Origin: Candidatus Omnitrophota bacterium
GTDB lineage: Bacteria; Omnitrophota; Gorgyraeia; DTHP01
Assembly (NCBI GenBank): GCA_023819145.1
Contig: JAMWCW010000008.1
Location: 5,584-69,583, forward strand
Direction of reading: 5' to 3'
Length of the DNA stretch: 64,000 bases
Shown here piece after piece: positions 921 to 30,726 of the stretch. The notes beneath the pieces are model-generated. The model ran no database searches and had not been told where the DNA came from. It saw only the letters and a program-made list of their open reading frames with translations. A program made the translations under genes and the position numbers. The number at the start of each line of letters is the position of its first letter. Position 1 is the stretch's first letter.

Positions 921-1649
921 ATGGAAAGAAATTTTACCTTAATTTTGCCGGTGAGAGATGAAGAAGAAAATATAAAAATCTTAATTGAGAAATTAAAAAA
1001 AACCCTTAAAGATACAATTGTAATTTTTGTTGATGATAGTTCTACAGATGAAACAGAAAAAATAGTAAAATTATTTATGGCGAAAGACAATGATATCATC
1101 TTGATTGAAAATAAAGGAAGCCGATTAGCTTCGGCAATTAGAACAGGGATAGAAAATGCTTCTACCGAAATTGTGGGCTGGATGGATGCAGATTTATCTA
1201 TGCCCGTAGAGATTATTCCACAGATGGTTGATTTTTTGTCTGAGTATGATATAGTTTTAGGTTCGCGTTATATTGAAGGAGGAAAAGATTTAAGAGAAAG
1301 TAGAATGCGTATTCTTACATCAAGACTATTTAATTTATTGAGTAAAAAAATATTAAATACAAAAACTAACGATCTCACATCGGGCTTTGTTATTACAAAA
1401 AAAGAGTTCTTAGAGGAATTAAAAATAGAAGGTAAATATGGTGAATATTGTCTAAGCCTCATTTATCAGGCAGAGAGGAAAGGATTTAAAATAAAAGAAG
1501 CTCCTTATATATTTCGGGAAAGAAAGAAGGGGAAAAGCAAAATTGGTTCCAATTTATTCATTTTATTTAAGAACTCTCTCTTCTATTTTCTGATGGTAAT
1601 AAGGCTTAAATTTAGAGATTTATTCTTTTATAGAGATAATAAATTTTAG
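921..1649 (+). CDS. GT2 family glycosyltransferase, polyprenol-phosphate sugar synthase (Dpm1/ArnC-like)
   Basis: N-terminal LILPVRDEEENI, central DxD-like VDDSS, and a GT2-A fold pattern (IVGWMDADL, VLGSRY, SGF..T) typical of dolichol-phosphate mannosyltransferase-like enzymes. Confidence 0.75.
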   Translation: MERNFTLILPVRDEEENIKILIEKLKKTLKDTIVIFVDDSSTDETEKIVKLFMAKDNDIILIENKGSRLASAIRTGIENASTEIVGWMDADLSMPVEIIPQMVDFLSEYDIVLGSRYIEGGKDLRESRMRILTSRLFNLLSKKILNTKTNDLTSGFVITKKEFLEELKIEGKYGEYCLSLIYQAERKGFKIKEAPYIFRERKKGKSKIGSNLFILFKNSLFYFLMVIRLKFRDLFFYRDNKF

Positions 1650-3417
1650 GATAAGGGTTTTTAAAAATAGATTTTGGTAGTTCAATTTTTTTTAATAGTT
1701 GATAATTGTATTGATTATTTTGTATCTCAAGAAAGAGTTCAAAAAATAACTTTTCTGCTTCAGAATACGAAATTTTAATATTGTAGTTCTTCTCTATAAC
1801 TTCATGTAAAAAAGTGTATAATTTATGTCTAAACAGAGGATTTCTTAATTCTCTTAAAGAATAAAAAGCATCGCTGTATTTTTCAATTGGCTCAGTAATT
1901 AAAATATAATCAAAATTATATGGCTGAAAAATTATTTTTGGACTTCCGTGACAATCTTTCTCTAAATTAAATAGGAATAATAATACTCGGGGGGTAAGCA
2001 TTTTGTCTTTAATTTTATGGGATATTTTTTCAAGTGTTGTTTCAAAAACATAAGGAATTCTCCATCGTTGTATAATTTTAAATCGCAATATATCTTCGAA
2101 TAAATCATCTGTAGCTAATCCGATAATGAATATCATTTTTTCATTATTTAGTTTCATGTCTTTTATAACTAAGTCTATAATATTATCTATATCCTCGTAA
2201 TCAAAACTAACGGCGTAAAGCATTCCCTCTCTGTGTGTTCTTTTATCAAAATCAATACTTGTAAAGATATATTTATCCTTTTTATAATTGATAATAAAAA
2301 ATTGAACCAGACAAAATAAAAAAAGACATAGAAATATTTTATGTTTATATAAGTTTAAGATTTTTCCCTTATAAATTTTTATGTATTGAGGAAGATTATT
2401 TAAAACATAAGCAATAACTATTCCTGAGGCAGGTAGTGACGGAAGAGTGTGTCTAGGAAAATCTTCGTAAGTGAAAAAAAGAAAATAAAAAAGAGGCGTG
2501 CATAACCAACTTAGAATAAATATCTTGTGTTTAGATTTTGTAATAGAATATAAAAAAAGACAGAAAAATAAAAGAATAGTTAATAGAGGATAAAGCTGAT
2601 ATTTCCAGAGGTTTAGACAAGAGAATTTGTATATATTATTTAACCTATTGATCGTAAATGATGTGTTTGCCGCATTCAACAGATAGAGTTGGCCAGGCAT
2701 ATGTTGGAGATACCACGGTAAAACAATAAGTAAGGGTAAGACAAAAAACAAAATACTAATTATTTTTATCTTCCCAAATTTATAAATAGCGTGAGAAGAA
2801 TATATTAAGAATGGGATAAAAAAATAAATAAGAAACGTTTGTTTATGAAGTAATCCAATTATAATGGTTAGGCTCGAAAAAAAAGAGTATATTTTTTTCT
2901 GAAAATATTCGGATTCAAGCAAAAAATAAAAAAATAAAGCTACTAAAGCTGTAATAGAAAAATCTAACATATACACACGGGAAAATCCAAAGATTCCCGG
3001 GTAAAAACTCACCAATAGAGCAGTGCCCATTCCGGTATATTCATTATCTAAGATTCCTCCAATTTTATATAACGCATAGATTAAGATAAAAAGATATAAG
3101 AGATTTGATAGAAGAGCTGTTTTAAGAGAAGGTCCTAAAAGGATAAAAAATGGTAAAGTAGCCATATGCCTCAAAAAAGGGTAAATCGAGTTAGTATCAA
3201 AAATTAAACATATTCTTTCTTTAAAAGACAATGACGGATTTCTTATAGCTTCGTATACTCTAAGCGAAGAAGAGTAGTATCCTAATTGATCCTCTACGAA
3301 AGGGGCATTGTCTTGAGAGATAATTATAAAATTGTTTATTGTATGGAAAATAAAAATGAGAATTAAGAAAAATTTAGTTCTATTTTTTTGCCAGAAAGAT
3401 AATATGGAAGTCATCAT
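1612..3417 (-). CDS. polytopic membrane glycosyltransferase, GT-C fold (PMT_2/ArnT-like) with C-terminal soluble domain
   Basis: About 12 predicted TM helices in the N-terminal 400 aa. First-loop acidic motif FVEDQLGYY resembles the catalytic DE/DD loop of ArnT/PMT/STT3. Confidence 0.5.
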   Translation of the reverse strand: MMTSILSFWQKNRTKFFLILIFIFHTINNFIIISQDNAPFVEDQLGYYSSSLRVYEAIRNPSLSFKERICLIFDTNSIYPFLRHMATLPFFILLGPSLKTALLSNLLYLFILIYALYKIGGILDNEYTGMGTALLVSFYPGIFGFSRVYMLDFSITALVALFFYFLLESEYFQKKIYSFFSSLTIIIGLLHKQTFLIYFFIPFLIYSSHAIYKFGKIKIISILFFVLPLLIVLPWYLQHMPGQLYLLNAANTSFTINRLNNIYKFSCLNLWKYQLYPLLTILLFFCLFLYSITKSKHKIFILSWLCTPLFYFLFFTYEDFPRHTLPSLPASGIVIAYVLNNLPQYIKIYKGKILNLYKHKIFLCLFLFCLVQFFIINYKKDKYIFTSIDFDKRTHREGMLYAVSFDYEDIDNIIDLVIKDMKLNNEKMIFIIGLATDDLFEDILRFKIIQRWRIPYVFETTLEKISHKIKDKMLTPRVLLFLFNLEKDCHGSPKIIFQPYNFDYILITEPIEKYSDAFYSLRELRNPLFRHKLYTFLHEVIEKNYNIKISYSEAEKLFFELFLEIQNNQYNYQLLKKIELPKSIFKNPYPKIYYLYKRINL

Positions 3418-5293: not shown

Positions 5294-6763
5294 ATGAAGG
5301 TAGTTTTGGCTAATTCTATCGGTAGAGATAAAAATGGTTTTTATATAATCCATTCTCCTTCGCGCTGGTCTGAAGGAGTAAGGTCTTTAAATAATTGGTT
5401 TGCCTATTATCCCTGGGAGTTAGCTTATACCTCTTCACTTCTAAAAAGAGAAACAGACCATAAAATTAAATTGGTAGATGGTTGCTTGGAAAGACTGGAT
5501 TTAGAAAATTATTATAAGAAGTTATTACAGGAAAAGCCAGATTGGTTAATTATGGAATCCGCTACAAGGATGATTGAAGAAAATTTAGAATTGGCTGTAA
5601 AGATTAAGGAAAATTTAGGGACAAAGATTATTTTTGTTGGACAACATGCATCAGCCTTTCCTGAAGAATTGCTAAATAGAGGAGTAGATTATGTCTGTAT
5701 TGGTGAATATGAGTTGACTGTTTTAGAGTTATTACAAGGAAAAGACCCAAAAAATATCTTAGGGCTCTATCCTAATCCACGGAGACCTCTTTTAGATGTT
5801 AATTTTCTTCCATTCCCTGAGGATGAAGATGTTAGGCGTATCGATTACGGTATGCCTGGAGAGCCATCTTCAGAATATATAGAGATTCAGATGTATGCCT
5901 CAAGGGGTTGTCCGAGAAATTGTAATTTTTGTGTAGCAAGGAATATTTATTATGCTCAAGCTAACTGGCGTCCCAGAAAAATTGAGAATATAATTTCTGA
6001 AATAAAATATTTAAAAAATAGATATCATCAAATGGAGGGAATATTTTTTGATGAAGAGGTGCACAATGTAAGAAAAGATTTTGTTTTGAATTTATGCCAG
6101 GCAATAAAAGAGAATGGTTTAAATAAACTTCATTATGAGGCGATGTGCGATATCTGGTTTATGGATGAGGAGGTGCTTGAGGCAATGCGTGAAGCGGGAT
6201 ATTATAAGATTAGATTTGGCATTGAAACTGCAAATCAAGGTGTAGCGAAATCAATAAACAAAGAACTTAATTTGGAGAAATTGTTTTCTATATTGAAAAT
6301 AGCCAAAGGCATTGGTTTAAAAACCTACGGAACATTTATGTTTGGTGCCTGGGGTTCAACAAAAGAGAGCGATTTAGAGACTATAGAACTAATGAAGAGA
6401 TTAATTATTAATGGTCTTCTTGATAATACCCAGATTTCTATCTGCACACCTCAACCCGGAACAGAATTCTATAGATTGGTAAAGGAAAAAGGTTATTTGG
6501 TAGAAAATGATTATTCTAAATTTGATGGAGGGAATTTCAGTGTAGTAAGTTATCCAAAATATAAAAAGGAAGAAATTGAAGAAATAAAAAATTTAGCTTT
6601 TAAGATAAGAGACCATTTATATTTTGTCTATCGCTTTAAAACTGGCTTATGGCTTAATTGGCTAATTTATGTATGGAAAAAATACGGATTTTGGAAAACA
6701 ACCAAGAAAATCTTTATCCGTTTTTTGAAGGAACTTAATTTCTTATGGCAAAGATTTCAATAA
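5294..6763 (+). CDS. B12-binding domain radical SAM protein (class B)
   Basis: N-terminal Rossmann-like cobalamin-binding region, then CPRNCNFC (CX3CX2C) radical SAM cluster motif and a TIM-barrel-like remainder. Confidence 0.8.
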   Translation: MKVVLANSIGRDKNGFYIIHSPSRWSEGVRSLNNWFAYYPWELAYTSSLLKRETDHKIKLVDGCLERLDLENYYKKLLQEKPDWLIMESATRMIEENLELAVKIKENLGTKIIFVGQHASAFPEELLNRGVDYVCIGEYELTVLELLQGKDPKNILGLYPNPRRPLLDVNFLPFPEDEDVRRIDYGMPGEPSSEYIEIQMYASRGCPRNCNFCVARNIYYAQANWRPRKIENIISEIKYLKNRYHQMEGIFFDEEVHNVRKDFVLNLCQAIKENGLNKLHYEAMCDIWFMDEEVLEAMREAGYYKIRFGIETANQGVAKSINKELNLEKLFSILKIAKGIGLKTYGTFMFGAWGSTKESDLETIELMKRLIINGLLDNTQISICTPQPGTEFYRLVKEKGYLVENDYSKFDGGNFSVVSYPKYKKEEIEEIKNLAFKIRDHLYFVYRFKTGLWLNWLIYVWKKYGFWKTTKKIFIRFLKELNFLWQRFQ

Positions 6764-7683
6764 TCATTGTAACCTGTAACGCAATAAAAATAATTAAAGA
6801 TTGCTTTATTTCAATTTTTAGACAGGATTTTAAGGATTTTGAGGTGATTGTAGTGGACAATAACTCTTTAGATAGGACAAAAGAATTTATAAAAGATAAT
6901 TTTCCTCAAGTAAAATTGATTGAAAATAAAAAAAATTTAGGATTTTGTCGGGCAAATAATCAGGGAATTGCGATTTCTCAAGGAGAATATATCCTTACTT
7001 TAAATAGTGATGTAATTCTGGAAAAAAATTTCTTACGAGAATTGATAAATCAGGCAGAGAATAGTTCATCAATTGTTGGGATGTTTAGTCCAAAGATTCT
7101 TAAGATGGATAAAAAAACTATTGATTCTACAGGAATTATTTTGACGCGCATAAGGAGATTTTATAATCGAGGGGAGGGCGAAATTGATTTTGGTCAATAT
7201 GATGATAAAAGAGATATTTTTGGCCCGTCTGCAGCCTGTGCTTTATATAAAAAAGAAATGTTTGAGAAAATAAAAATTGGTGATAATGAATATTTTGATA
7301 ACGATTTCTTTTTCTTAGTTGAGGATGTAGATTTGGCATGGCGAGCAAATTTAATGGGTTTTAAAGGATTATTCATACCAAATGCTTTATGCTATCATTT
7401 AGGAAATAGTTTTGGTTTAAGTAGAAAAATGCGTCAATATCTTTCTTTTCGTAATCGCTTTCTAACGATGCTAAAGAATGAAAGTTGGGGTTATTTTTTA
7501 AAAAATTTAGTATTTTTATTATTATATGATATCCCAAGGTTTTTATATCTAATATTCACTAATTTACTTGTCTTTAAAGCAACCTTTGAGATAATTTATC
7601 TTCTGCATAAAATACTTAATAAACGCAGGCGCATAACTTTATTTACTCGATTAGGGATAATAAGTTTATATGAGATATTTTAA
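6745..7683 (+). CDS. GT2 family glycosyltransferase
   Basis: IIIVTCNA...VIVVDNNS..D N-terminal GT-A signature and DxD-like region. Confidence 0.7.
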   Translation: MAKISIIIVTCNAIKIIKDCFISIFRQDFKDFEVIVVDNNSLDRTKEFIKDNFPQVKLIENKKNLGFCRANNQGIAISQGEYILTLNSDVILEKNFLRELINQAENSSSIVGMFSPKILKMDKKTIDSTGIILTRIRRFYNRGEGEIDFGQYDDKRDIFGPSAACALYKKEMFEKIKIGDNEYFDNDFFFLVEDVDLAWRANLMGFKGLFIPNALCYHLGNSFGLSRKMRQYLSFRNRFLTMLKNESWGYFLKNLVFLLLYDIPRFLYLIFTNLLVFKATFEIIYLLHKILNKRRRITLFTRLGIISLYEIF

Positions 7684-8872
7684 ATCTTCAGAATTGTATT
7701 TAATTCGAAATGTTTTTCAGGCCGTAATTAATGGTGGGCATAAAAACGAAATAAAGCGTATTTTAGAAAATAAGCATATAAATTGGGAAATATTGGATAA
7801 ATTAATTATATATCATGAGATAGCCCCTGCGTTTTACTTGGCTATATCCTCGCTGTTTCATTTAATTCCTCAAAAGACAAAAACTCTGCTTGAGTGGTTT
7901 TATTTTAATACAGGGTTTAAGAACCATATAATATTTGAAGAATTTATAAAATTATACGATAAATTTAAAGAAAAGGGAATAGAAATATTACCCATTAAAG
8001 GAGTTGCCTTTTTATTGGATTTATATGATAGTTTTTATGTTAGGTCTATTGCTGATATAGATATTTTAATACGTAGAGAATATTATAGTAAAGGAGAGAG
8101 TGTTTTAATGAACTTGGGTTTTCAAAAAGACTTGCATGGTTTAGAGGAAGCTTATTGGAAGTTATATCAATGTCACATTTCATTTAGAGATAAAGAAAAA
8201 AACAATGATTTACCCATTATGGTAGATCTTCATTGGGCGCTTGATTTTAAAAGGAAAGGTAGATATGTTTTGGCCAATCTGTGGAAAAGGCTAAGAACAA
8301 TTAGGATCAAAAATAATAACAATATAAATTTATTATCTCCTGAGGATAATTTATTTTCTCTGGCTTTACATTTGAGAAGATTTGGTAATCCCTTTTCTTT
8401 TAAATATGTTATTGATACGGCCCTTTTATTTAGGAAATACGGTTCGGATTTTGATTGGGATTATTTTTTAAAAGAAGCTAAAAAAGAAGGTTTATGGTCG
8501 TGTAGTTATTTTCTAATTTTCTTAGCCAATTCTATTATTGAAATTCCTGAGCTTAAATATTCTGCAAAAAAAATTCCATTATCTAATTATAAGAGGAAAA
8601 TTATCGAAAAACTAATACTCAAAAAATTATGCTTTCTTAATGACTTGCTCGCACAAAATCTGAGAAAAAATTACCTTCAGAGCCATTTTTTATTTTATGA
8701 TGGTTTCTTTGAACCAATTTATTATATTTTAAACATTCCCTTAGAACAATTTGCAAAATTTTATAATTTAAAACCTTATAATCAAAAAACAAGAATCAAA
8801 TATAGCTTTCGTTTTCTATATATACCTACTAAATTATTATTTTTTAATTTTAATAATATCCCATTTGCATAA
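7670..8872 (+). CDS. nucleotidyltransferase-fold protein (PF14907-like, RiPP-associated)
   Basis: PIKGVAFLLDLYDSFYVRSIADIDILIRRE resembles the G..x..D.D NTase motif. It sits convergent to and 36 nt overlapping the PqqD-like gene. Confidence 0.45.
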   Translation: MRYFKSSELYLIRNVFQAVINGGHKNEIKRILENKHINWEILDKLIIYHEIAPAFYLAISSLFHLIPQKTKTLLEWFYFNTGFKNHIIFEEFIKLYDKFKEKGIEILPIKGVAFLLDLYDSFYVRSIADIDILIRREYYSKGESVLMNLGFQKDLHGLEEAYWKLYQCHISFRDKEKNNDLPIMVDLHWALDFKRKGRYVLANLWKRLRTIRIKNNNNINLLSPEDNLFSLALHLRRFGNPFSFKYVIDTALLFRKYGSDFDWDYFLKEAKKEGLWSCSYFLIFLANSIIEIPELKYSAKKIPLSNYKRKIIEKLILKKLCFLNDLLAQNLRKNYLQSHFLFYDGFFEPIYYILNIPLEQFAKFYNLKPYNQKTRIKYSFRFLYIPTKLLFFNFNNIPFA

Positions 8873-9139
8873 TTTTTCTATAAATTTTATTATATCTCTT
8901 TTCAAATTTTGAGTATAATTTATATTGAATTTCGTGCACATTTCTACAATAATTTCTTTTATGTTTTTCTTACCATCTATCTTATCCCAAATATATGCTC
9001 CAGTGCGATTAAGTTCATATATTTCATTAGTAGGTATATATAAAAGAACTAAAGTATCTTCTATTTTTCTCCAGGCAAGTTTGTTTTTATTCTTTTTAAA
9101 TATAAATTCAGGTTTAATTACTTTTTTGTTTTTTTCCAT
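8837..9139 (-). CDS. PqqD-family protein (RiPP recognition element / peptide chaperone)
   Basis: About 100 aa with LNRTGAYIWDKIDGKKNIKEIIVEMCTKF...IKFIEKL, a PqqD-like winged-helix pattern. The ORF track starts at GTG 9148 but ATG 9139 (MEKNKK) is the more likely start. It lies 1 nt after the precursor ORF stop. Confidence 0.7.
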   Translation of the reverse strand: MEKNKKVIKPEFIFKKNKNKLAWRKIEDTLVLLYIPTNEIYELNRTGAYIWDKIDGKKNIKEIIVEMCTKFNINYTQNLKRDIIKFIEKLCKWDIIKIKK

Positions 9140-9140
9140 G

Positions 9141-9290
9141 CTACTCACACACTATTATGTCAACACATTGCGGTGGAGAATATATACATTGAGTGTTTAC
9201 AATGCCTTTGGGAAATTTATTCATTTTTTTTATTGTGGGTTTCTCATATTTTCTTTTTTCTTGATTTTTAATTATGTTTTTCTTATCCAT
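9141..9290 (-). CDS. putative RiPP precursor peptide (49 aa, 3 Cys), not in the ORF track
   Basis: Hand translation of the minus strand gives MDKKNIIKNQEKRKYEKPTIKKMNKFPKGIVNTQCIYSPPQCVDIIVCE. The ATG is 4 nt after the rSAM/SPASM stop and a GGAGG lies 8 nt upstream. The stop is 1 nt before the PqqD ATG. Confidence 0.5.
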   Translation of the reverse strand: MDKKNIIKNQEKRKYEKPTIKKMNKFPKGIVNTQCIYSPPQCVDIIVCE

Positions 9291-9294
9291 TATT

Positions 9295-10308
9295 CTAACC
9301 TCCTTTTGCTAATAAATTTGTTAGTCTCTTTGCCTTTGAGAATATTTTATCGGGGCATTTTGTGGGATTACCGCTATAGAATTCAAAAACTGCAGGGCAC
9401 TTGAATATACAGATATTTCTATAATAGCATGTTTGACAATCTTTAAAGTCAGAAAATTTCAACTCTCGTAGTCTTGTGAATAAAGGAGAATTATACCATA
9501 TATCTGTAAGGGATTGCTTTTGGATATTCCCCGCTTCTTTATAATAAACTGCGCATGGAAAGACCCGTCCTTCTGCAGAGATATAACACCTTGTTATACC
9601 TGCTCCACAAGGAATAGGATTATTTTTAAAACGGATTAAGTGAGAACGGTCTAATTTGTATAATTTGATCTTCCAGCGATTGACTAAGGTAATTAAACCA
9701 TCGGGAGGGAGTTCGTATTCTAAAGTTTTCAAAGAAAATCTTCGGGTAGGAGCAATTGTAGAAGAGAATTTAAGATTTATATTTTTTCTATTTTTTTTTA
9801 ATTTATTATATATTTTTTTTATTTCTGGGATGCCTTTATAAGTGAGAGTATTAATAGGATAAATTAAGCCTATATTTGCTCCAATGTTAAGAAGATTTTC
9901 AATCCCCTTTAGAGCATTTTTAAATTTTCTCTTTCCAGTAAAATTCTCATAGGTTTCTTCATTGGCACCGTAAAGAGTAACTTTAAAATCAAATACACCG
10001 TGTTTAAATAGACGATGGGCAGTTGATTTATCAATTAAAGTTCCATTGGTAAGAAGCCCTACTTTAAATCCTTTTTTTCTTGCCTTTTGGATAAGATAGA
10101 ATATATCTTTTCTAATTAAAGGTTCTCCTCCGGTAAGGGTAATAGTCAGGGTTCCAAGATTAGTTAACTCGTCCAATAGGCAAAGATAGATTTGTTTGTC
10201 TAGTTCGATATTATCTTTTTCCAAAAAACAATATTTGCATTTTAAATTGCAGGAACGCGTTATTTCTATATGTATTGTTTCAATATAATTTCTTCTATTT
10301 TCTGCCAT
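9295..10308 (-). CDS. radical SAM/SPASM-domain peptide maturase
   Basis: N-terminal CNLKCKYC (CX3CX2C). C-terminal SPASM pattern PCGAG...C...C then CQTCYYRNICIFKC (CX2CX5CX3C), then KCP. Confidence 0.85.
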   Translation of the reverse strand: MAENRRNYIETIHIEITRSCNLKCKYCFLEKDNIELDKQIYLCLLDELTNLGTLTITLTGGEPLIRKDIFYLIQKARKKGFKVGLLTNGTLIDKSTAHRLFKHGVFDFKVTLYGANEETYENFTGKRKFKNALKGIENLLNIGANIGLIYPINTLTYKGIPEIKKIYNKLKKNRKNINLKFSSTIAPTRRFSLKTLEYELPPDGLITLVNRWKIKLYKLDRSHLIRFKNNPIPCGAGITRCYISAEGRVFPCAVYYKEAGNIQKQSLTDIWYNSPLFTRLRELKFSDFKDCQTCYYRNICIFKCPAVFEFYSGNPTKCPDKIFSKAKRLTNLLAKGG

Positions 10309-11201
10309 AGGTTTATTTGTTTTAAATTTGCTTTTTTTAATAATAAGGGATTGATTTTTAATATAACACTTTTTGCCTGAAGTGTCAATGTATATAAAAG
10401 TGCAATCACTCTTTTAGTCAAAAAGACCTTATTTACGGCTGCAAATCGTAGGGGAAAAATTTCACAAAGAAGTTTCAGCAAAGTTTCTTTTAGAGAAGGA
10501 ATAACAATTTGGAAATGGCAGATATCATCAGCTTTTTCCAAAAAAAGGATATGCGTTGGTTTTGAATTATTAATCCAATTACTAATTGCTAAATCCAACT
10601 TGAAATTTTGTTTTTTAAATCCACCTATGTAAGGTAATCCCGCAGTTATGATATGTTCTTTTTTAGCGATAAAAATAGAATCATCTCCTACTATTTTATA
10701 TCCCTTCTGAATAGCATTAATTAATAAAGTAGATTTACCAGCCCCACTTTTGCCGGTAGCAAGTACGGAAATTCTATCATTTGTCCAACTGGAGGCATGG
10801 ATTGAAAAGAATCCTTCTGCTTGAAGCAATGTTTTAAGCGTATTTTGGAAAATTGCATAATATCCGATAGGATTATTGAGATATTTGTGCATAGTTATAA
10901 ATGCTGAAAGATTTTCAAAATCTAAGAAATATTCATAAAATGGGGTATGATTAAAATGCATTTTTCGTGGAGAAAATTTACACTTTATTGATTTACTTGT
11001 TTTTGGTTTTCTTAGAAATATAATCTCTATCTCTTTTTGAGGGGTAGTTTTTGGTAAGTTAAGGTAGTTTTTTTTTAGATAGTTAATAAGTAAGGGGATG
11101 TCAGAGAGTAATTTAATTTTATAATTATAAAACTGTAAGGAGAAATTTTTAAGGCCTTCTTTTTTAATAAAAAAAATACTTCCCATTTTTTTTGAACACA
11201 A
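10266..11201 (-). CDS. HPr kinase-related (HprK C-terminal domain-like) P-loop kinase
   Basis: VLATGKSGAGKSTLLINAIQKGYKIVGDDSIF matches the HprK P-loop (G.SG.GKSE...rG..LV.DD). It overlaps the rSAM start by 43 nt. Confidence 0.65.
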   Translation of the reverse strand: MCSKKMGSIFFIKKEGLKNFSLQFYNYKIKLLSDIPLLINYLKKNYLNLPKTTPQKEIEIIFLRKPKTSKSIKCKFSPRKMHFNHTPFYEYFLDFENLSAFITMHKYLNNPIGYYAIFQNTLKTLLQAEGFFSIHASSWTNDRISVLATGKSGAGKSTLLINAIQKGYKIVGDDSIFIAKKEHIITAGLPYIGGFKKQNFKLDLAISNWINNSKPTHILFLEKADDICHFQIVIPSLKETLLKLLCEIFPLRFAAVNKVFLTKRVIALLYTLTLQAKSVILKINPLLLKKANLKQINLWQKIEEIILKQYI

Positions 11202-11309
11202 ACTGTATTGCAGATTTTAATATTTGTTAGTAGAATATTATATAATAGATTTTAAAATAATTACATCGATTTTAGAAAATTTAAATATGTAAAAACAAAA
11301 TAAAAAATA

Positions 11310-12782
11310 ATGAGAATTAAGGTTATTCTTCTAATAGTTTTATTATTAGCTTTGGGGATAAGGATTTACTGTTTAGGAAAGTGGGAACTCTGGTATGATG
11401 AGATTTTAGCGATTAAGACTGCGCAGAATTTTAGATTAGCGAATAATTCTTATCTGTATTATACTCTTCTTTATTATTGGATAAAATTTTTTAAATTCTC
11501 TGAATCCACTGTTCGTATTCCGTCTTTAATTTTCAGTATGTTATCTATAGCCTCACTTTATTTGTTGGGAAAAAATTTATTTAATGAGAAAATCGCTTTG
11601 TTCTCTACCGGGTTATTGGCTTTTAATCCATTTCATATCTGGTATTCTCAGGAGGCAAGACCTTATAGTGCATTGGTTTTGTGTGGTATTTTGTCATCAT
11701 ATTTTTTATTTAGAGGGTTAAAGGAAAAAAAGATTTTATTTTTATTTCCCTTCACTTTTTTATCTGTTGTTGGAATATATCTCCACTATTTTTATATTAC
11801 CTTTTTGCTAGTATGTTTATTTATTGTTTTATTATTTTTGTTTGTTAAAAAACAAAAATATTATGTTTATTGGCTTACAATAAGTATATTAATTATTTTT
11901 TTGTTCCTTTCTCCTTGGCTACCGCGGTTTCTATTAAATCTGTGCTGTATTATAGATGGATTTTGGATACCTGTGCCTAGTTTTAAATCTTTGTTTATAA
12001 CTTTAGAAAATTTTAATTTAGGTTATAATGCTCCTAATTGGGCGTATAAATATTCATTATTTTTGACTCTTATTTTATTTCTCTCCGCCATAAATTTTCT
12101 TAGAGAAAAAAAAGAATTACAGAGCAACTTTTGGTTATGTTTGATGTTATTTATTTTACCCATTTTATTTGCCTTTTTCTTTTCTAAATTTTTATTTTCC
12201 ATCTATCTTGATCGTGCCTTAATGATTTCTTCTCCTTATTATTATTTAATCTTAGGGATAGGTTTAGAGTCCATAGGGAGGAAGAAGTTAAAATATTTTG
12301 TAAAATTATCTATATTTTTTTTGTTAGTTCAGAGTCTATCTTTTTATTACCAAGGTATCACACATTCGTCTCTTACACACCATACAGGTGCTTACGTTAA
12401 AAAGCCTATAAGGCCTGTAATTAATTATTTAGAAAGAAGAGTGAATAAAAATGATATAATATGTATTATAAATACCCATGTATTTCTACAATTTAATTTT
12501 TATAAACAAAATAAAGGGATATTATGTTTTTATGTTTTTTCTCCAGAAATATGGGATACTAATTGGAACAGACCTCATTCTGAAGGAAATAACTGGATTC
12601 CTGTAAATAGATTAATAGGATTTGATAGTGATAGAATATGGATGCTTTTTTCTGATTGTCCGAGAAGCGGCAAGTTAGATGAAAATTCCCAAAAAGTTAA
12701 GTCATGGATGGATAAAAACTACCTGACTATATTCGAACAGTGGCTAGATGGGATTTTGCTAAAATTATATGAAAAAAAGTAG
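11310..12782 (+). CDS. GT-C fold membrane glycosyltransferase (PMT_2/ArnT family)
   Basis: Polytopic membrane protein. First-loop motif LWYDEILAIK and FNPFHIWYSQEARPYS resemble ArnT/PMT_2. Confidence 0.65.
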   Translation: MRIKVILLIVLLLALGIRIYCLGKWELWYDEILAIKTAQNFRLANNSYLYYTLLYYWIKFFKFSESTVRIPSLIFSMLSIASLYLLGKNLFNEKIALFSTGLLAFNPFHIWYSQEARPYSALVLCGILSSYFLFRGLKEKKILFLFPFTFLSVVGIYLHYFYITFLLVCLFIVLLFLFVKKQKYYVYWLTISILIIFLFLSPWLPRFLLNLCCIIDGFWIPVPSFKSLFITLENFNLGYNAPNWAYKYSLFLTLILFLSAINFLREKKELQSNFWLCLMLFILPILFAFFFSKFLFSIYLDRALMISSPYYYLILGIGLESIGRKKLKYFVKLSIFFLLVQSLSFYYQGITHSSLTHHTGAYVKKPIRPVINYLERRVNKNDIICIINTHVFLQFNFYKQNKGILCFYVFSPEIWDTNWNRPHSEGNNWIPVNRLIGFDSDRIWMLFSDCPRSGKLDENSQKVKSWMDKNYLTIFEQWLDGILLKLYEKK

Positions 12783-13872
12783 GTTATTATTTATAGTCAT
12801 TTTGTTGGCTTCGTCTCTTTGGTTTTCTTCTCCAAAGTGTATGGTAGACAACTTAGATTTGTTTAACAGAGAAGAGATCTCTACAGCCAAGATTTATTAT
12901 TTTGTAGAAATACCGAGGACAAAATATGGCAGATACTCAGGGAAAGGAGAGATTATTTTTAAAAGAGATTTCGGGGTTATAAATAATATGGTCAATAATT
13001 ATTCTGAGAAAAAAGATGAAGAAAGAATAAAAATAATTGAAAATTTTATTACAGGAATTAATTTAAATTATAACTATTTAACTAATAAAGTAGAAAAAAG
13101 AGACTACCATAATTGGTTTGGAATAAAATGGTATTTCGGTAAGGATTTACATTTTAATATTTGGGACATTTTTGCTATTTCAAGAAGCAATTTATTATCT
13201 GTTTATAACCACGAAGGGATAGAGAAAAAAGGTAATAAAGAGATCTCTATAATTTCTGGGATTTTGGCTAAATATCCTTTTTGGGGGAATAAATGCAAAA
13301 TCTGGATAGATAAAGAGTATAATTTTATTCATAAATTTATTATTTATAGTGAAAAAGATGAGCCGATTTTTACCTTAGAGGTTACGGAGGTGGAAGTAAA
13401 TCCGGAAATAGACGATAAAGAATTTAGCACAGAGATTCCTCCGGATTTTACTGTGGTAGATATAACCGAACAATTTGCCCAGCAATATCGGATTCTTGTG
13501 CAATTGTATGATTTTTATAATCGGATTAAGGAATTAGAAAAAAAGTTAGAAGTTTTACGAAAAGAAAATGAGGAATTAAAAGAGATGTCTAAGGAAAAGG
13601 AAGTTGAGAAGAGAATTGCTATAACCAAGGAGCCAGTTGTTCTATTCATAGATAGAGAAAATAAATTTGTGGTTATGGGAGGAAGAGAAGATGATTTAGT
13701 GGTGGGAGAAATATTTGAGGTTTATCGGGGAAGTAAACTGTTGGGTAAGCTTGAGATTACGCGGGTTTATCAAGATTTGGCAGTGGCAGAGCCAGTTATG
13801 GAGGGGCTAATGGATGTTATTAAAGAGGGCGATAGTTTGGTAAGAGCGAGTTCAGAAAGTTTTTTCCCTTGA
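12769..13872 (+). CDS. hypothetical secreted protein with coiled-coil segment
   Basis: N-terminal signal-like hydrophobic segment and a KE-rich coiled-coil (LEKKLEVLRKENEELKEMSKEKEVEKR). Confidence 0.4.
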   Translation: MKKSRLLFIVILLASSLWFSSPKCMVDNLDLFNREEISTAKIYYFVEIPRTKYGRYSGKGEIIFKRDFGVINNMVNNYSEKKDEERIKIIENFITGINLNYNYLTNKVEKRDYHNWFGIKWYFGKDLHFNIWDIFAISRSNLLSVYNHEGIEKKGNKEISIISGILAKYPFWGNKCKIWIDKEYNFIHKFIIYSEKDEPIFTLEVTEVEVNPEIDDKEFSTEIPPDFTVVDITEQFAQQYRILVQLYDFYNRIKELEKKLEVLRKENEELKEMSKEKEVEKRIAITKEPVVLFIDRENKFVVMGGREDDLVVGEIFEVYRGSKLLGKLEITRVYQDLAVAEPVMEGLMDVIKEGDSLVRASSESFFP

Positions 13873-27369: not shown

Positions 27370-29226
27370 TTAATAATTTACCTCAAATATACGAAAAAAT
27401 CCCGATTCCATTTCTGTTTTATAGATTTCTTTAAAGCGGTTCGATTTAAGAAAAGTCCGCAGATTGGGTTTAAGTTCTTTTTCATAAGGACTGATGACAA
27501 TATGAGTGATTTTATATTTCTTGATGAAGGTTAAATCTGCGATACGATAAATCTCTTGTATATCTTTTTCTATCTCATCATATTTATATCCATGAGACCA
27601 GAGCCATCCCCGATAGCCCAAGATAATACTCCTTCCACTTAACATAGAAACAGGATGATTATGAGTATCTGAGGTTAAAATTAAAGCAGAAGGTGTTATG
27701 TTTTTTCTTACCCAAGAGGCAATCGCTTGTTCTTTCTTATTTGCCATTACAAAACTTATACGATTAAGGTAAATGTAGTCAATTACTCCAGAAAATACTG
27801 AAAAAAATAACAGGATAATTACTAAAAATAATCGGTCAGGTTTTTTCCAACGCGAGGTTTCTAAAATCTTTATCGGAGTAAAACTGGCAATAACACAACT
27901 TATGAAAAACCAATGCAGGAAATATTTAGCGTTGTCCCAGTCCAAGGGATGAACCATGATAAAGTTGGCCAAAAGAAAGATTATAAGAAAAGGTAGATAA
28001 AAAATAATCTCTTTTTTTCTTACCAGAAATAAACCTTTGATGAGTAGAAAGAAAATAAATCCGAAGTTATAAATCCAAAAAAGAAAAATGAGTATAGGAT
28101 TAGGTGAATTTAGCATCCAGCCCGGTTTGAGCCAAAAAGATTTATGTAAGGTGTTGCTAATGAGATAAAATACTTGAGGTAGACTTACGATAATCGCCGG
28201 AACGATAAAATAAATCCATTCTTTTCGGAGACGAAAGATGAAAAGAATTAAAGAAACAAAAATTAAAACTATAAAAGAAGAAGTATGGATCAATGGGAGA
28301 CAACCTAAAAGAAATCCTCCGAGGATAAGATTCTGTACGGAAATTCGCGGTTCGTTATTTTTAAAAAATTCTTTTAGAAGAATAAGATAGATAAATACGG
28401 AAATAGCCATTCCCCAGATAATTGTTCTCTGTGAAAGGAAAAGGACTGAAAGTGCATTTCCCCAGACAAGCCCTTTGGAATCAATTTTAGTATAGAAAGA
28501 TTGGGCAAAGAATATTTCTTTTGGCTCTTTTCCTAAAGCAAAGAGAAAACCAAAATTTCCATTAAGGAAGAGAAGAAGCAGACAAAATAACGCCGCAATT
28601 TCTGAATGGCTAAATTCTTTAGTAAAAAGAAAAATTATAGAAATAAGCCCAATTCCTAAGATTAGGTTAATAAAAACAATAGAATTTACATAACTTAAAC
28701 CCCCCTTATACATAATTGCTGAAAGAAAATCAGTGAGGAAGGGATAGATAAGTTTATGTTTTACGAGGAGAGGGTGGTTTAAGGTTAAAGGGGTTTTTTC
28801 CGAAAAATGCATCATATAAGTAAGATGGAGGGCATAATCTCCCCAGGCGGTAGACATTGCTCTTAAATTTCCTTGCGTATCAAACTTAAAGGTATTGAAA
28901 TTAACTAAAGAAAAGATTAAGCTGAAGAGGATAATGGTTAAAAGATAAGTTTTAGAGGGAAGAATTATTGAAGGAAATTTTTTCTTTTGAGCATATTTTA
29001 AAAGAGCCAGAGAGAAGAATACAGAAATTATAGTTACTACCAAAATTAATTTTATATTCAGTGAGCCAATAATCAGGGACAATATAAAGGTTATCCAAGT
29101 GGTAAGCGTAAAACCCAGAATTATCCCTAAAGTAAATTTTTCCTCAATCCGTGGGAATCCCCGAAAATATAAAGCAATACTTGTTCCTAAGAGAAAACTT
29201 GCTAAACAAAAAATTATCCCTATCAT
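27370..29226 (-). CDS. polytopic membrane protein, possible GT-C glycosyltransferase partner
   Basis: Approximately 14 TM helices. It abuts and is transcribed with the PMT-like gene at 29227..30726. Confidence 0.35.
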   Translation of the reverse strand: MIGIIFCLASFLLGTSIALYFRGFPRIEEKFTLGIILGFTLTTWITFILSLIIGSLNIKLILVVTIISVFFSLALLKYAQKKKFPSIILPSKTYLLTIILFSLIFSLVNFNTFKFDTQGNLRAMSTAWGDYALHLTYMMHFSEKTPLTLNHPLLVKHKLIYPFLTDFLSAIMYKGGLSYVNSIVFINLILGIGLISIIFLFTKEFSHSEIAALFCLLLLFLNGNFGFLFALGKEPKEIFFAQSFYTKIDSKGLVWGNALSVLFLSQRTIIWGMAISVFIYLILLKEFFKNNEPRISVQNLILGGFLLGCLPLIHTSSFIVLIFVSLILFIFRLRKEWIYFIVPAIIVSLPQVFYLISNTLHKSFWLKPGWMLNSPNPILIFLFWIYNFGFIFFLLIKGLFLVRKKEIIFYLPFLIIFLLANFIMVHPLDWDNAKYFLHWFFISCVIASFTPIKILETSRWKKPDRLFLVIILLFFSVFSGVIDYIYLNRISFVMANKKEQAIASWVRKNITPSALILTSDTHNHPVSMLSGRSIILGYRGWLWSHGYKYDEIEKDIQEIYRIADLTFIKKYKITHIVISPYEKELKPNLRTFLKSNRFKEIYKTEMESGFFRIFEVNY

Positions 29227-30726
29227 TTATATCCAACTCTTTATCCACATATAAAAATCAAATGTCTTCTGGCTTATGGGCAGACCATAGCTTAAAGGTG
29301 AAAAGATTAAGAAACAGCCAATTAATGTGAAAAATAGGGCTATTAACCAGTAGTGAGGAATTTTATAAATATTTCTTTTGGTTATAAAATAAAGATAAAT
29401 ACTGAATAAACTCCCCAGAATAATAAAAAAGCTTCCTAATAAAAAAGGAGTCTCTTGGGGAATATACCATAAATAAACGGCGCGGGAGATTAAAATAAGT
29501 AAAGGAAGCGCGGTAATTAAGGTAAATATACTTGGAAGTGGAGAGGGTATTTCTTCTATTGCTAGAAATTTATCTAAAATAACTGCGGTAGCAATTAACG
29601 CAAAGATAAGCGCCGTAAGATAATGATATAAAAATAAACAACGGGAAATAGACATAAAAGGGAGGAAGGAAATGATATAACCGCTTAAAATAATCTCTTT
29701 ACCTCTAAATTCAGCTAAATTCCTGAAAGGAAAGAATTTCTTAAGGAAGGTCAGAATAATAAGAGTAATTATCCCCAGTGTGGATAACCACCAGACAAAA
29801 GGGTTTCCTAAAAAGGTAATATTTTGCACGTGGTTACTTCCCAGAGAAGAATGCAAATAACTCACCGACCTTGCCATAAAAGGCCAGGTAAACCATTTGC
29901 TGGAATAGTGATGAGTTAGAGGGCGTGAATGGCTATAAAACATGCTTTTGTTTAATCCCATAACTTCTTTAAATCCTCCCGCATGATTTAATGTTTTGAA
30001 ATGGATGGAAATTGTAAAATAGTAAATGATTAAAGGAATAATTACAAAAGTAAGAAAATACATAATTATTTTTTTTGGTTTTTTCATTATTTTTAGACGC
30101 TCGGTGTAAAGAATTTCTATCAAAACTATCCCCAGACCAATTAAACCAATCCATTTAGTAGATATCGTAAAACCTCCACTCATCCCAGCGATAAAAAGCC
30201 AGCGTTTTCTTTTTCCATTTTCGCTTTTTAGAAAAGTATATATGGTAAAGATAATAAAAAAGATTAAAAATGGGTCAGGAGTAATAAACCGTGAATGGGT
30301 CAAAAAGGCGTTGTCAAAAAGAATAAATAAAGAAGCCAATAATCCTGCACGCGGAGATTGGGTAATTTTTTGTGTAAAAAGAAAAATAAGCGGTATTAAT
30401 AAAGCACCAAACAATGCAGGAACAAGTCTTAAAACAAAAAGAGGGGTCTCTTTGGGATATGCTGAACCAATATGCTCAAAACTTGTTTTTGGATCTAAAC
30501 TAAATAATTTTGCTAAACCTGCCATAAAGAGTTTAGCCAAAGGAGGATGGTCATCAAAAAAATATTCCCGCTTTAGATAACTTGAGATATATTTCCCATA
30601 GTGCACTTCATCAAAGACGACTTTATTGACAGAACTTAAATTAATTAAGCGGGTGAGTAAAGAGAGTAGGGTAAGAAAGAGGAGAATCTTAGAACGGTGC
30701 TGCTTAAATAAATTATTGTTTTGCAT
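29227..30726 (-). CDS. protein O-mannosyltransferase-like GT-C glycosyltransferase (GT39/PMT family)
   Basis: VVFDEVHYGKYIS first-loop motif closely matches the Pmt1 VVFDEVHFG signature; multipass membrane topology. Confidence 0.7.
   Translation of the reverse strand: MQNNNLFKQHRSKILLFLTLLSLLTRLINLSSVNKVVFDEVHYGKYISSYLKREYFFDDHPPLAKLFMAGLAKLFSLDPKTSFEHIGSAYPKETPLFVLRLVPALFGALLIPLIFLFTQKITQSPRAGLLASLFILFDNAFLTHSRFITPDPFLIFFIIFTIYTFLKSENGKRKRWLFIAGMSGGFTISTKWIGLIGLGIVLIEILYTERLKIMKKPKKIIMYFLTFVIIPLIIYYFTISIHFKTLNHAGGFKEVMGLNKSMFYSHSRPLTHHYSSKWFTWPFMARSVSYLHSSLGSNHVQNITFLGNPFVWWLSTLGIITLIILTFLKKFFPFRNLAEFRGKEIILSGYIISFLPFMSISRCLFLYHYLTALIFALIATAVILDKFLAIEEIPSPLPSIFTLITALPLLILISRAVYLWYIPQETPFLLGSFFIILGSLFSIYLYFITKRNIYKIPHYWLIALFFTLIGCFLIFSPLSYGLPISQKTFDFYMWIKSWI

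Follow-up and report, generated by a model that had tools for sequence, protein, structure and literature searches.

A candidate precursor peptide gene in an Omnitrophota operon for an HprK-like kinase, a radical SAM/SPASM enzyme and a PqqD-family protein

What substrate could an HprK-like kinase, a radical S-adenosylmethionine (rSAM) enzyme and a PqqD-family protein share when their genes stand together in the genome of a Candidatus Omnitrophota bacterium? These genes lie on the minus strand of a 64,000-nucleotide stretch of contig JAMWCW010000008.1 (assembly GCA_023819145.1; positions 5,584 to 69,583), which we call the window and whose numbering we use throughout. A preliminary description made from the letters alone had pointed to a 49-residue open reading frame (ORF) between the rSAM and PqqD genes, with a leader reminiscent of PqqA and three cysteines near its C-terminus. 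We find that this ORF is real, that it most likely codes for protein, and that it is probably the precursor of a ribosomally made peptide with post-translational modifications (RiPP) served by a four-gene maturation operon comprising the kinase, the rSAM enzyme, the peptide and PqqD.

The reverse complement of positions 9141-9290 translates to MDKKNIIKNQEKRKYEKPTIKKMNKFPKGIVNTQCIYSPPQCVDIIVCE followed by a stop codon. The sequence and coordinates given in the preliminary description are therefore exact, with the strand, which it left unstated, being minus. Its numbering of Cys35, Cys42, Cys48, Thr33, Tyr37 and Ser38 is also correct (the cysteine codons lie at 9186-9188, 9165-9167 and 9147-9149, respectively), and the GGAGG ribosome-binding site it named is in place (Table 1). 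The gap it reported between the flanking genes is 146 nucleotides (nt) only if PqqD begins at the GTG at 9148; the likelier start, the ATG at 9139, widens it to 155 nt, in which case the ORF begins 4 nt past the rSAM stop codon and a single nucleotide separates its end from that ATG. Throughout the minus-strand operon of kinase, rSAM, 49-residue ORF and PqqD the gene ends overlap or abut. As the GC content of the window is 35%, stop codons are frequent, and when the 155-nt spacer was shuffled 20,000 times a complete ATG-initiated ORF of at least 49 codons arose in just 4 cases. An Rfam search of positions 8500-11500 returned no family match, and the RNA fold of the spacer is not better than those of its shuffles (z = +0.83). 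The exact peptide is absent from a collection of 15 billion proteins that does hold the neighboring rSAM enzyme (MCM8784130.1, recorded under "Candidatus Omnitrophica bacterium"; the kinase is annotated as NC818_05115). Hence, the gene appears to be unannotated, just as had been anticipated for an ORF of this size under default annotation. Two other frames were considered and set aside: a 159-residue plus-strand ORF across the same region (8925-9404) is a Phe/Leu/Ile-rich antisense artefact, and a small antisense ORF with a WxxPxF-like string (9514-9639) sits inside the rSAM gene.

The case for a coding gene comes chiefly from a second locus. Among 5.8 billion clusters the rSAM enzyme has one close homolog, P0002, at 69% identity; the remaining matches reach at most 31% over most of the protein, with a few short partial alignments of up to 44%, and a protein search with the kinase likewise recovered a single relative. 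P0002 is carried on a 5.6-kb Logan contig (L001), the sole syntenic locus found, in which the gene order matches that of the window: a protein without assigned function and a PMT_2 glycosyltransferase, then, divergently, the kinase, the rSAM enzyme, a called 50-residue ORF and PqqD. The 50-residue product, MSKKKTVKKQEKMKYEKPIIKKINKLSNSIVSTQCFTSPPLCAPGFDVCY, is 57% identical to the window peptide, with one clean in-frame 3-nt indel among the differences. Upstream of it, too, stands AAAGGAGGTGA, so that both the Shine-Dalgarno sequence and the start codon are kept. The blocks M.KK...K.QEK.KYEKP.IKK.NK, IV.TQC..SPP.C and VC are invariant between the two peptides and include all three cysteines as well as the KYEKPxIKK string. 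The preliminary description would have given the ORF up had it not been conserved at syntenic loci; in L001 the frame, the Shine-Dalgarno sequence, the leader motif and the three cysteines are all intact. Conservation is uneven along the peptide, with 20 of 31 positions identical in the leader, which carries the recognition motif described below, and 8 of 18 in the core. The small ORF is under protein-level purifying selection, as are its neighbors: its Nei-Gojobori dN/dS is 0.21 at a saturating dS of 1.29, and the ratios for the kinase, the rSAM enzyme and PqqD are 0.23, 0.12 and 0.24, respectively, at dS of about 1.3. In sum, a small ORF stands beside modifying enzymes and a recognition protein and is conserved along with them, which is the pattern of RiPP precursors in general.

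The peptide family is real, with two members so far. Searched exhaustively by phmmer with the peptide as query, 1.84 billion representatives gave only the L001 peptide and one chance match to a eukaryotic repeat protein, and neither a word-index search with the peptide nor a scan of metagenome contigs with the peptide alignment yielded a candidate. A scan of genome contigs with N-terminal patterns from the rSAM alignment gave only an unrelated rSAM enzyme from Patescibacteria (L003, 25% identity), the window rSAM sequence itself had no exact entry in the contig index, and protein searches that included JGI data gave no intermediate relatives of either the rSAM enzyme or the kinase.

The leader has the features of a peptide read by a discrete RiPP recognition element (RRE). 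Its residues Y15-x-x-P18-x-I20 fit the [Y/W]xxPx[L/V/I/F/A] motif that is bound by the discrete RREs of lasso peptides and of linear polyphosphorylated peptides (LPPs), whose hydrophobic cleft the leader Tyr and Pro enter (PMC13381572, PMC10368454). From the lasso register, in which the Tyr is at -17, the boundary between leader and core would fall at V31-N32, giving an Ile at -2 as in the lasso precursor BsfA; I30-V31 is invariant in L001. The best solved relatives of the PqqD protein are the lasso RREs TbiB1 (5v1u, E 5e-6) and PbaB1 (9x90, E 5e-3); it is 25% identical to the characterized BsfB1 (pairwise E 2e-8), and its best NCBIfam matches include lasso_PqqD_Bac, although every one of them falls below cut-off. 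The WKKPAF string of PqqA is a further instance of the motif in the leader. The likening of the leader to PqqA was thus reasonable as an analogy, but the PqqD protein itself is nearer to the lasso B1 RREs TbiB1 and PbaB1 than to the PqqD of pyrroloquinoline quinone (PQQ) synthesis. The window therefore combines a B1-type RRE with a leader of the YxxPxL type at residues 15-20, as lasso systems do. The R-D-I-I-K-F stretch of the PqqD protein aligns with R-D-L-R-D-F of TbiB1, and its D-x3-F spacing equals that of D70 and F74 in LppB, the first of which hydrogen-bonds the leader Tyr and the second of which packs on the leader Pro (PMC13381572); by this analogy the same roles may be assigned to the window residues.

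A kinase acting on the peptide, as the preliminary description had proposed, gains support from its active site. Over the catalytic region the protein aligns with BsfK, and its motif H-x14-G-x2-G-x-G-K-S-x15-D-D has a spacing identical to that of BsfK, with all eight motif residues kept (H148, G163, G166, G168, K169, S170, D186 and D187 in BsfK numbering). Mutagenesis showed that six of the eight matter for catalysis by BsfK, the G166A and G168A variants having near wild-type activity (PMC10368454). BsfK, a lasso precursor kinase, adds phosphate to core residue Ser3 and works much faster with the RRE BsfB1 (PMC10368454), which sets a precedent for a peptide kinase being assisted by an RRE. In LPPs, core Ser3 is polyphosphorylated by LppK (PMC13381572), and paeninodin-type kinases target the C-terminal Ser (PMC8498205). 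Three residues had been named as targets in the window peptide. Thr33 and Ser38 are invariant in L001; Tyr37 is Thr there, and both BsfK and LppK rejected Tyr. As Thr33 lies at Tyr+18, the register of the LPP phospho-Ser3, it is the best candidate for phosphorylation, with Ser38 second. We also observed a sigma-70-like promoter at 10360-10388 on the minus strand, within the 3' end of the kinase gene and about 50 nt before the rSAM start (TTGACA, a 17-nt spacer, TATATT and an extended -10 TG; 11 of 12 consensus matches). It could drive the rSAM, peptide and PqqD genes independently of the kinase; the number of promoters in the region overall is not above that in shuffles.

The rSAM enzyme bears a CX3CX2C motif at residues 20-27 and a full seven-cysteine SPASM domain (C234-x12-G-x4-C252, C291-x2-C-x5-C-x3-C304 and C318), all conserved in L001; a SPASM-bearing rSAM enzyme is what sactipeptides and ranthipeptides also use. 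With no RRE domain at its N-terminus, the enzyme has to depend on the discrete PqqD protein. It would most probably form thioether cross-links, as the cysteines are the invariant and register-fixed feature of the core.

The fixed register emerges from distant loci, which we reached as rSAM homologs of 26-30% identity accompanied by a discrete PqqD. Five such cassettes (L006, L010, L008, L011 and L002) contain, besides PqqD and the rSAM gene, a small ORF with Y-x-x-P-x-[I/L/M], and all but L002 also have an HprK-like or ScmC-like gene (Table 1). A cysteine at Tyr+20, the first of the peptide in all but L011, is common to the window, L001, L006, L010 and L011, and the first one of L008 is at Tyr+19; when the rule was put to the test on L011, the cysteine stood at Tyr+20 there as well, along with a further one at Tyr+6. 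The recurrence of the register points to this cysteine as the one that is offered to the enzyme. From their sequences the small ORFs of L006, L010, L008 and L011 look like the precursors of their cassettes, and three of these four contain C-K-T or C-L-K-T. The window kinase is related to the ScmC-like proteins of these cassettes (hhalign probability 94%, E 1.3e-7), and those of L006 and L010 retain the complete H..G..G.GKS..DD motif. Against the NCBIfam models of the SynChlorMet families, every protein of the distant cassettes and of the window stays under the cut-off.

Several observations on these loci deserve separate mention. In both L006 (1-4002) and L010 (2-3469) the cassette comes directly downstream of the gene for a surface protein of very large size, whose last domain is of the Peptidase_C25 (gingipain-like) type; this protein could be a processing protease or a mere neighbor. 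The 51-residue cysteine-free ORF of L002 (…KEKYFKPHLYKY…APESGGG) has an rSAM/SPASM gene on one side and a lasso-like PqqD on the other, in a locus with four rSAM genes and two glycosyltransferases in all, and probably represents a different RiPP. In L012, a CpsB/CapC-type (PHP) phosphatase gene (1764-2495) follows directly after PqqD in a cassette of ScmC-like protein, rSAM and PqqD, which hints at a cycle of phosphorylation and dephosphorylation in cassettes of this kind. Two further rSAM homologs were rejected as parts of peptide systems: that of L004 lies in a heme/siroheme context and that of L005 has no PqqD.

From these comparisons we infer a route of maturation that runs from RRE binding to the fate of the product. 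The lysine-rich leader would dock through Y15-x-x-P18-x-I20 in the hydrophobic cleft of the discrete PqqD RRE, as in lasso and LPP systems, and the RRE would present the C-terminal core (approximately residues 32-49) to the rSAM enzyme and the kinase. The rSAM/SPASM enzyme would most probably form intramolecular thioethers from Cys35, Cys42 and Cys48, with Cys35 at the fixed Tyr+20 register, and the HprK-like kinase would phosphorylate a conserved hydroxyl of the core, Thr33 or else Ser38. The NTP_transf_5 nucleotidyltransferase and the surrounding glycosyltransferases may extend or decorate the phosphate; PsmN extends the phosphate in pseudomycoidin (PMC8498205). More tentatively, we raise the possibility that the window, L006, L008, L010 and L011 form an uncharacterized RiPP class whose product is a phosphorylated, thioether-bridged peptide tied to envelope glycosylation. 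In such a class a lasso-type RRE would read Y-x-x-P and thereby set a cysteine exactly 20 residues on for the rSAM/SPASM enzyme, the kinase would phosphorylate the same core, and NTP_transf_5 might attach further groups. If so, the small ORFs would be candidate precursor genes for SynChlorMet-like cassettes.

Against this route several results have to be weighed. As only two orthologous loci were found in the databases searched, conservation rests on a single pairwise comparison. The kinase scores 27.6 bits against Pfam Hpr_kinase_C, under the gathering cut-off of 33.3, and an AlphaFold2 model of it from the two-sequence alignment is unusable (pLDDT 34.5). The rSAM enzyme is far below every NCBIfam maturase cut-off, and its top matches are the heme-pathway enzymes AhbD and NirJ2, so its chemistry is not readable from sequence. 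Its relative in L002 (30% identity) adjoins a cysteine-free candidate peptide, and the rSAM neighborhood is therefore not tied to thioethers. Neither a leader peptidase (signal peptidase I-like, SpI, or B2) nor an MsbA-type exporter turned up when the full 64 kb was searched by tblastn with proteins of L006 and L008 and the larger ORFs out to about 35 kb were scanned with Pfam. Finally, in L001 the 549 nt that run from PqqD to the contig end yielded no NTP_transf_5 homolog.

Some of these results lend themselves to another account, in which the peptide is a real precursor but the rSAM enzyme makes a C-C or C-O cross-link, epimerizes a residue or modifies a beta-carbon, leaving the cysteines as disulfide partners, metal ligands or features independent of the kinase or the RRE. 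It draws on the sub-threshold scores of the enzyme, whose best RiPP-type NCBIfam matches are spread over WgkB, ScmE, StsB, MftC, PqqE and PapB and thus differ widely in chemistry, and on the YFKPHL peptide of L002. We nevertheless think it unlikely. The three cysteines are invariant although 10 of the 18 core positions have changed between the window and L001, the Tyr+19/+20 cysteine recurs in four distant cysteine-bearing cassettes as well as in the window and L001, and cysteine-rich cores associated with SPASM maturases have usually turned out to be sactipeptides or ranthipeptides.

An improbable alternative is that the peptide gives rise to an intracellular cofactor or an envelope-attached moiety, in the manner of PQQ or mycofactocin, and not to a released peptide. 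A combination of PqqD with an rSAM/SPASM enzyme is common to the PQQ and mycofactocin systems, the window cassette is embedded in and syntenic with the envelope glycosylation genes PMT_2, GT2 and GT4, and the lack of a leader peptidase or exporter in the window would fit such a product. However, the C-terminal residue varies (E in the window, Y in L001), whereas the reactive C-terminal residues of PqqA and MftA are fixed, no partners of the PqqB/C or MftD/E type are present, and the PqqD, PqqE and MftC scores are under their cut-offs. Moreover, the more complete of the distant cassettes hold SpI-like peptidases and MsbA-like exporters.

We consider very improbable a lanthipeptide-like route in which the kinase would phosphorylate Ser or Thr for elimination, a cysteine would add to the dehydro residue and the rSAM enzyme would have some other role. 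The intact kinase motif and the conserved hydroxyl two to three positions past the first cysteine in several cassettes (C-x-[Y/T]-S, CKT, CLKT) are compatible with it, but domain scans reveal no lyase or cyclase domain in the operon, and the characterized HprK-like RiPP kinases leave stable phosphate or polyphosphate esters. That the ORF is open only by chance and lies in a spacer that is not translated, as its shortness, its absence from the public protein collection and the single comparator locus might suggest, is scarcely credible given the low dN/dS, the in-frame indel, the start signals shared with L001, the rarity of such ORFs in shuffles and the same kind of ORF in five distant cassettes.

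A bridged and phosphorylated peptide, which we continue to prefer, would be made amid genes for envelope glycans. The NTP_transf_5 gene, convergent with PqqD and with no terminator-like site in the overlap between them, belongs to the same Pfam family as LppN of the LPP clusters; it is a possible accessory enzyme of uncertain linkage. Upstream of it lie GT2, B12-binding rSAM and GT4 genes. The B12-binding rSAM enzyme (5294-6763, plus strand, between GT4 and GT2), whose best match is HpnJ-like at 163 bits and far below cut-off, could have the peptide as its substrate or take part in an envelope glycan pathway. On the other side, the PMT_2 glycosyltransferase and the 367-residue protein have counterparts in the same arrangement in L001, at 68% and 56% identity, respectively, by tblastn. 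Among the ORFs scanned (the larger ORFs to about 35 kb) there is no lasso cyclase or B2 protease domain. A 601-residue ORF at 1612-3417 (minus) considered as a lasso cyclase is a multi-pass membrane protein without a Pfam match. A second protein of about 600 residues, again without a Pfam match, is encoded at 27370-29226 (minus); both have glycosyltransferase genes around them, and the second stands beside a PMT-family protein O-mannosyltransferase (29227-30726).

Table 1. Features of the candidate precursor locus (window positions) and the small ORFs of the distant cassettes (positions in their own contigs)
Feature	Position	Strand	Basis or content
Precursor peptide gene, 49 residues (probable)	9141..9290	minus	stop codon 9141-9143; translation, L001 ortholog, absence from protein collection
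Predicted leader, residues 1-31	9198..9290	minus	lasso register with Tyr at -17 (PMC10368454)
Leader motif Y15-E-K-P18-T-I20, predicted RRE-binding	9231..9248	minus	KYEKPxIKK invariant in L001; motif of PMC13381572
Predicted core NTQCIYSPPQCVDIIVCE	9144..9197	minus	three Cys, T33, Q34 and S38-P39-P40 invariant in L001
Shine-Dalgarno GGAGG	9299..9303	minus	8 nt 5' of the ORF ATG, in the final rSAM codons
Discrete PqqD-family RRE, 100 residues	8837..9139	minus	Pfam PqqD 54.5 bits; ATG 9139, alternative GTG 9148
Radical SAM/SPASM enzyme, 337 residues, no fused RRE	9295..10308	minus	Pfam Radical_SAM 77 bits, SPASM 47.7 bits
HprK-like P-loop kinase, 306 residues from NCBI start	10266..11186	minus	ORF reaches 11201; motif matches BsfK
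NTP_transf_5 nucleotidyltransferase	7670..8872	plus	Pfam 140 bits; convergent, 36-nt overlap with PqqD 3' end (8837-8872)
PMT_2 (GT-C) glycosyltransferase and 367-residue protein, function unassigned	11310..13872	plus	divergent; Pfam, tblastn
Small ORF of L006/L007	6028..6222 (L006)		YERPAI; Cys Tyr+20, +34, +40; with SpI-like peptidase, ScmC-like
Small ORF of L010	4879..5064		YTKPRL; Cys Tyr+20, +33, +42; with ScmC-like
Small ORF of L008/L009	4552..4722 (L008)		YVKPDI; Cys Tyr+19, +28; with second PqqD-rSAM pair, MsbA-like exporter, ScmC-like, SpI-like
113-residue ORF of L011	6083..6424		YEEPKM; Cys Tyr+6, Tyr+20, more downstream; with ABC (ATP-binding cassette) exporter, ScmC-like
Small ORF of L002	5244..5399		YFKPHL, no Cys; with three further rSAMs, two glycosyltransferases, no kinase

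How does this locus compare with known systems? The closest in its accessory genes are the LPPs (Popov et al. 2026), which are defined by an SpI peptidase and reported from Bacillota (PMC13381572). Like the window they have a discrete lasso-type RRE, an HprK-like kinase and a YxxPx[V/I/L] leader, and they are sited within glycosyltransferase or polysaccharide loci; their NTP_transf_5 enzyme may have its counterpart in the convergent window gene next to PqqD. Indeed, the kit of kinase, RRE and NTP_transf_5 in glycosyltransferase-rich loci is the characterized accessory set of LPPs and paeninodin (PMC13381572, PMC8498205). Unlike them, the window belongs to Omnitrophota and is without the archaeal-type signal peptidase I (TIGR02228) and the MsbA-like exporter in tblastn and Pfam scans, and the accessible part of the LPP report mentions no rSAM/SPASM enzyme or three-cysteine core (PMC13381572). 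Of the LPP leader consensus, YxxPxVLxHQxIxFETxxS, the window shares only Y-x-x-P-x-I. The phosphorylated lasso peptides paeninodin, pseudomycoidin and Bsf likewise combine a YxxPx[L/I] leader with a B1-type RRE, a kinase with the H..G..G.GKS..DD motif and an N-type nucleotidyltransferase (PMC8498205, PMC10368454), and the window Ile that would be at -2 has its equivalent in BsfA. The window differs in that neither the asparagine synthetase-like cyclase (C) nor the transglutaminase-like B2 protein was found among the ORFs scanned; its core is without the Gly1/Asp-Glu macrolactam pattern, and an rSAM enzyme stands in the place of the cyclase.

The SynChlorMet (Scm) cassettes (NCBIfam TIGR04248-04251, Pfam ScmC) share with the window an HprK-like or ScmC-like P-loop protein, a PqqD and an rSAM/SPASM enzyme. 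Nonetheless, the window proteins fall far below the family cut-offs (ScmD 28.8 versus 100, ScmE 114.8 versus 400, ScmF 79.6 versus 400), the ScmC NCBIfam model has no window match at E <= 0.01, and the window has one rSAM enzyme where the Scm cassette has two. In the searchable literature we found no paper that mentions "SynChlorMet" and none that describes such a cassette or a characterized product. With sactipeptides and ranthipeptides the window shares a short cysteine-bearing core, an rSAM/SPASM maturase and an RRE-dependent leader; it differs in that the RRE is discrete and lasso-like instead of being fused to the maturase and that a peptide kinase is co-encoded. The maturase is below the cut-offs of the PapB, StsB, AlbA, SkfB and CteB types (PapB 82.1 versus 340, StsB 114.9 versus 625), and AlbA and SkfB are not among its 25 best NCBIfam families. 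PQQ synthesis is more remote, with PqqD at 41.2 versus a cut-off of 46, PqqE at 93.4 versus 381, no E-x3-Y of PqqA in the peptide and no PqqB/C nearby. So too is mycofactocin, with MftC at 114.3 versus 265 and C-termini of VCE and VCY in place of Gly-Val-Tyr.

Two logics are thus already known: the kinase, RRE and nucleotidyltransferase with a YxxP leader, from LPPs and paeninodin, and the rSAM enzyme, PqqD and cysteine-bearing peptide, resembling that of sactipeptides and ranthipeptides. The locus would join these two enzyme sets, the lasso/LPP kinase-RRE-nucleotidyltransferase and the rSAM/SPASM maturases, which had not earlier been described together. It adds to Omnitrophota, a little-studied phylum, a precursor gene that is missing from public proteins, and it offers a rule for mining, whereby a Y-x-x-P leader followed by a first cysteine at Tyr+19/+20 would point to the precursors of PqqD-rSAM-HprK-like cassettes. 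What is new in relation to the known systems is a rare Omnitrophota version of the SynChlorMet-like cassette with a newly recognized precursor.

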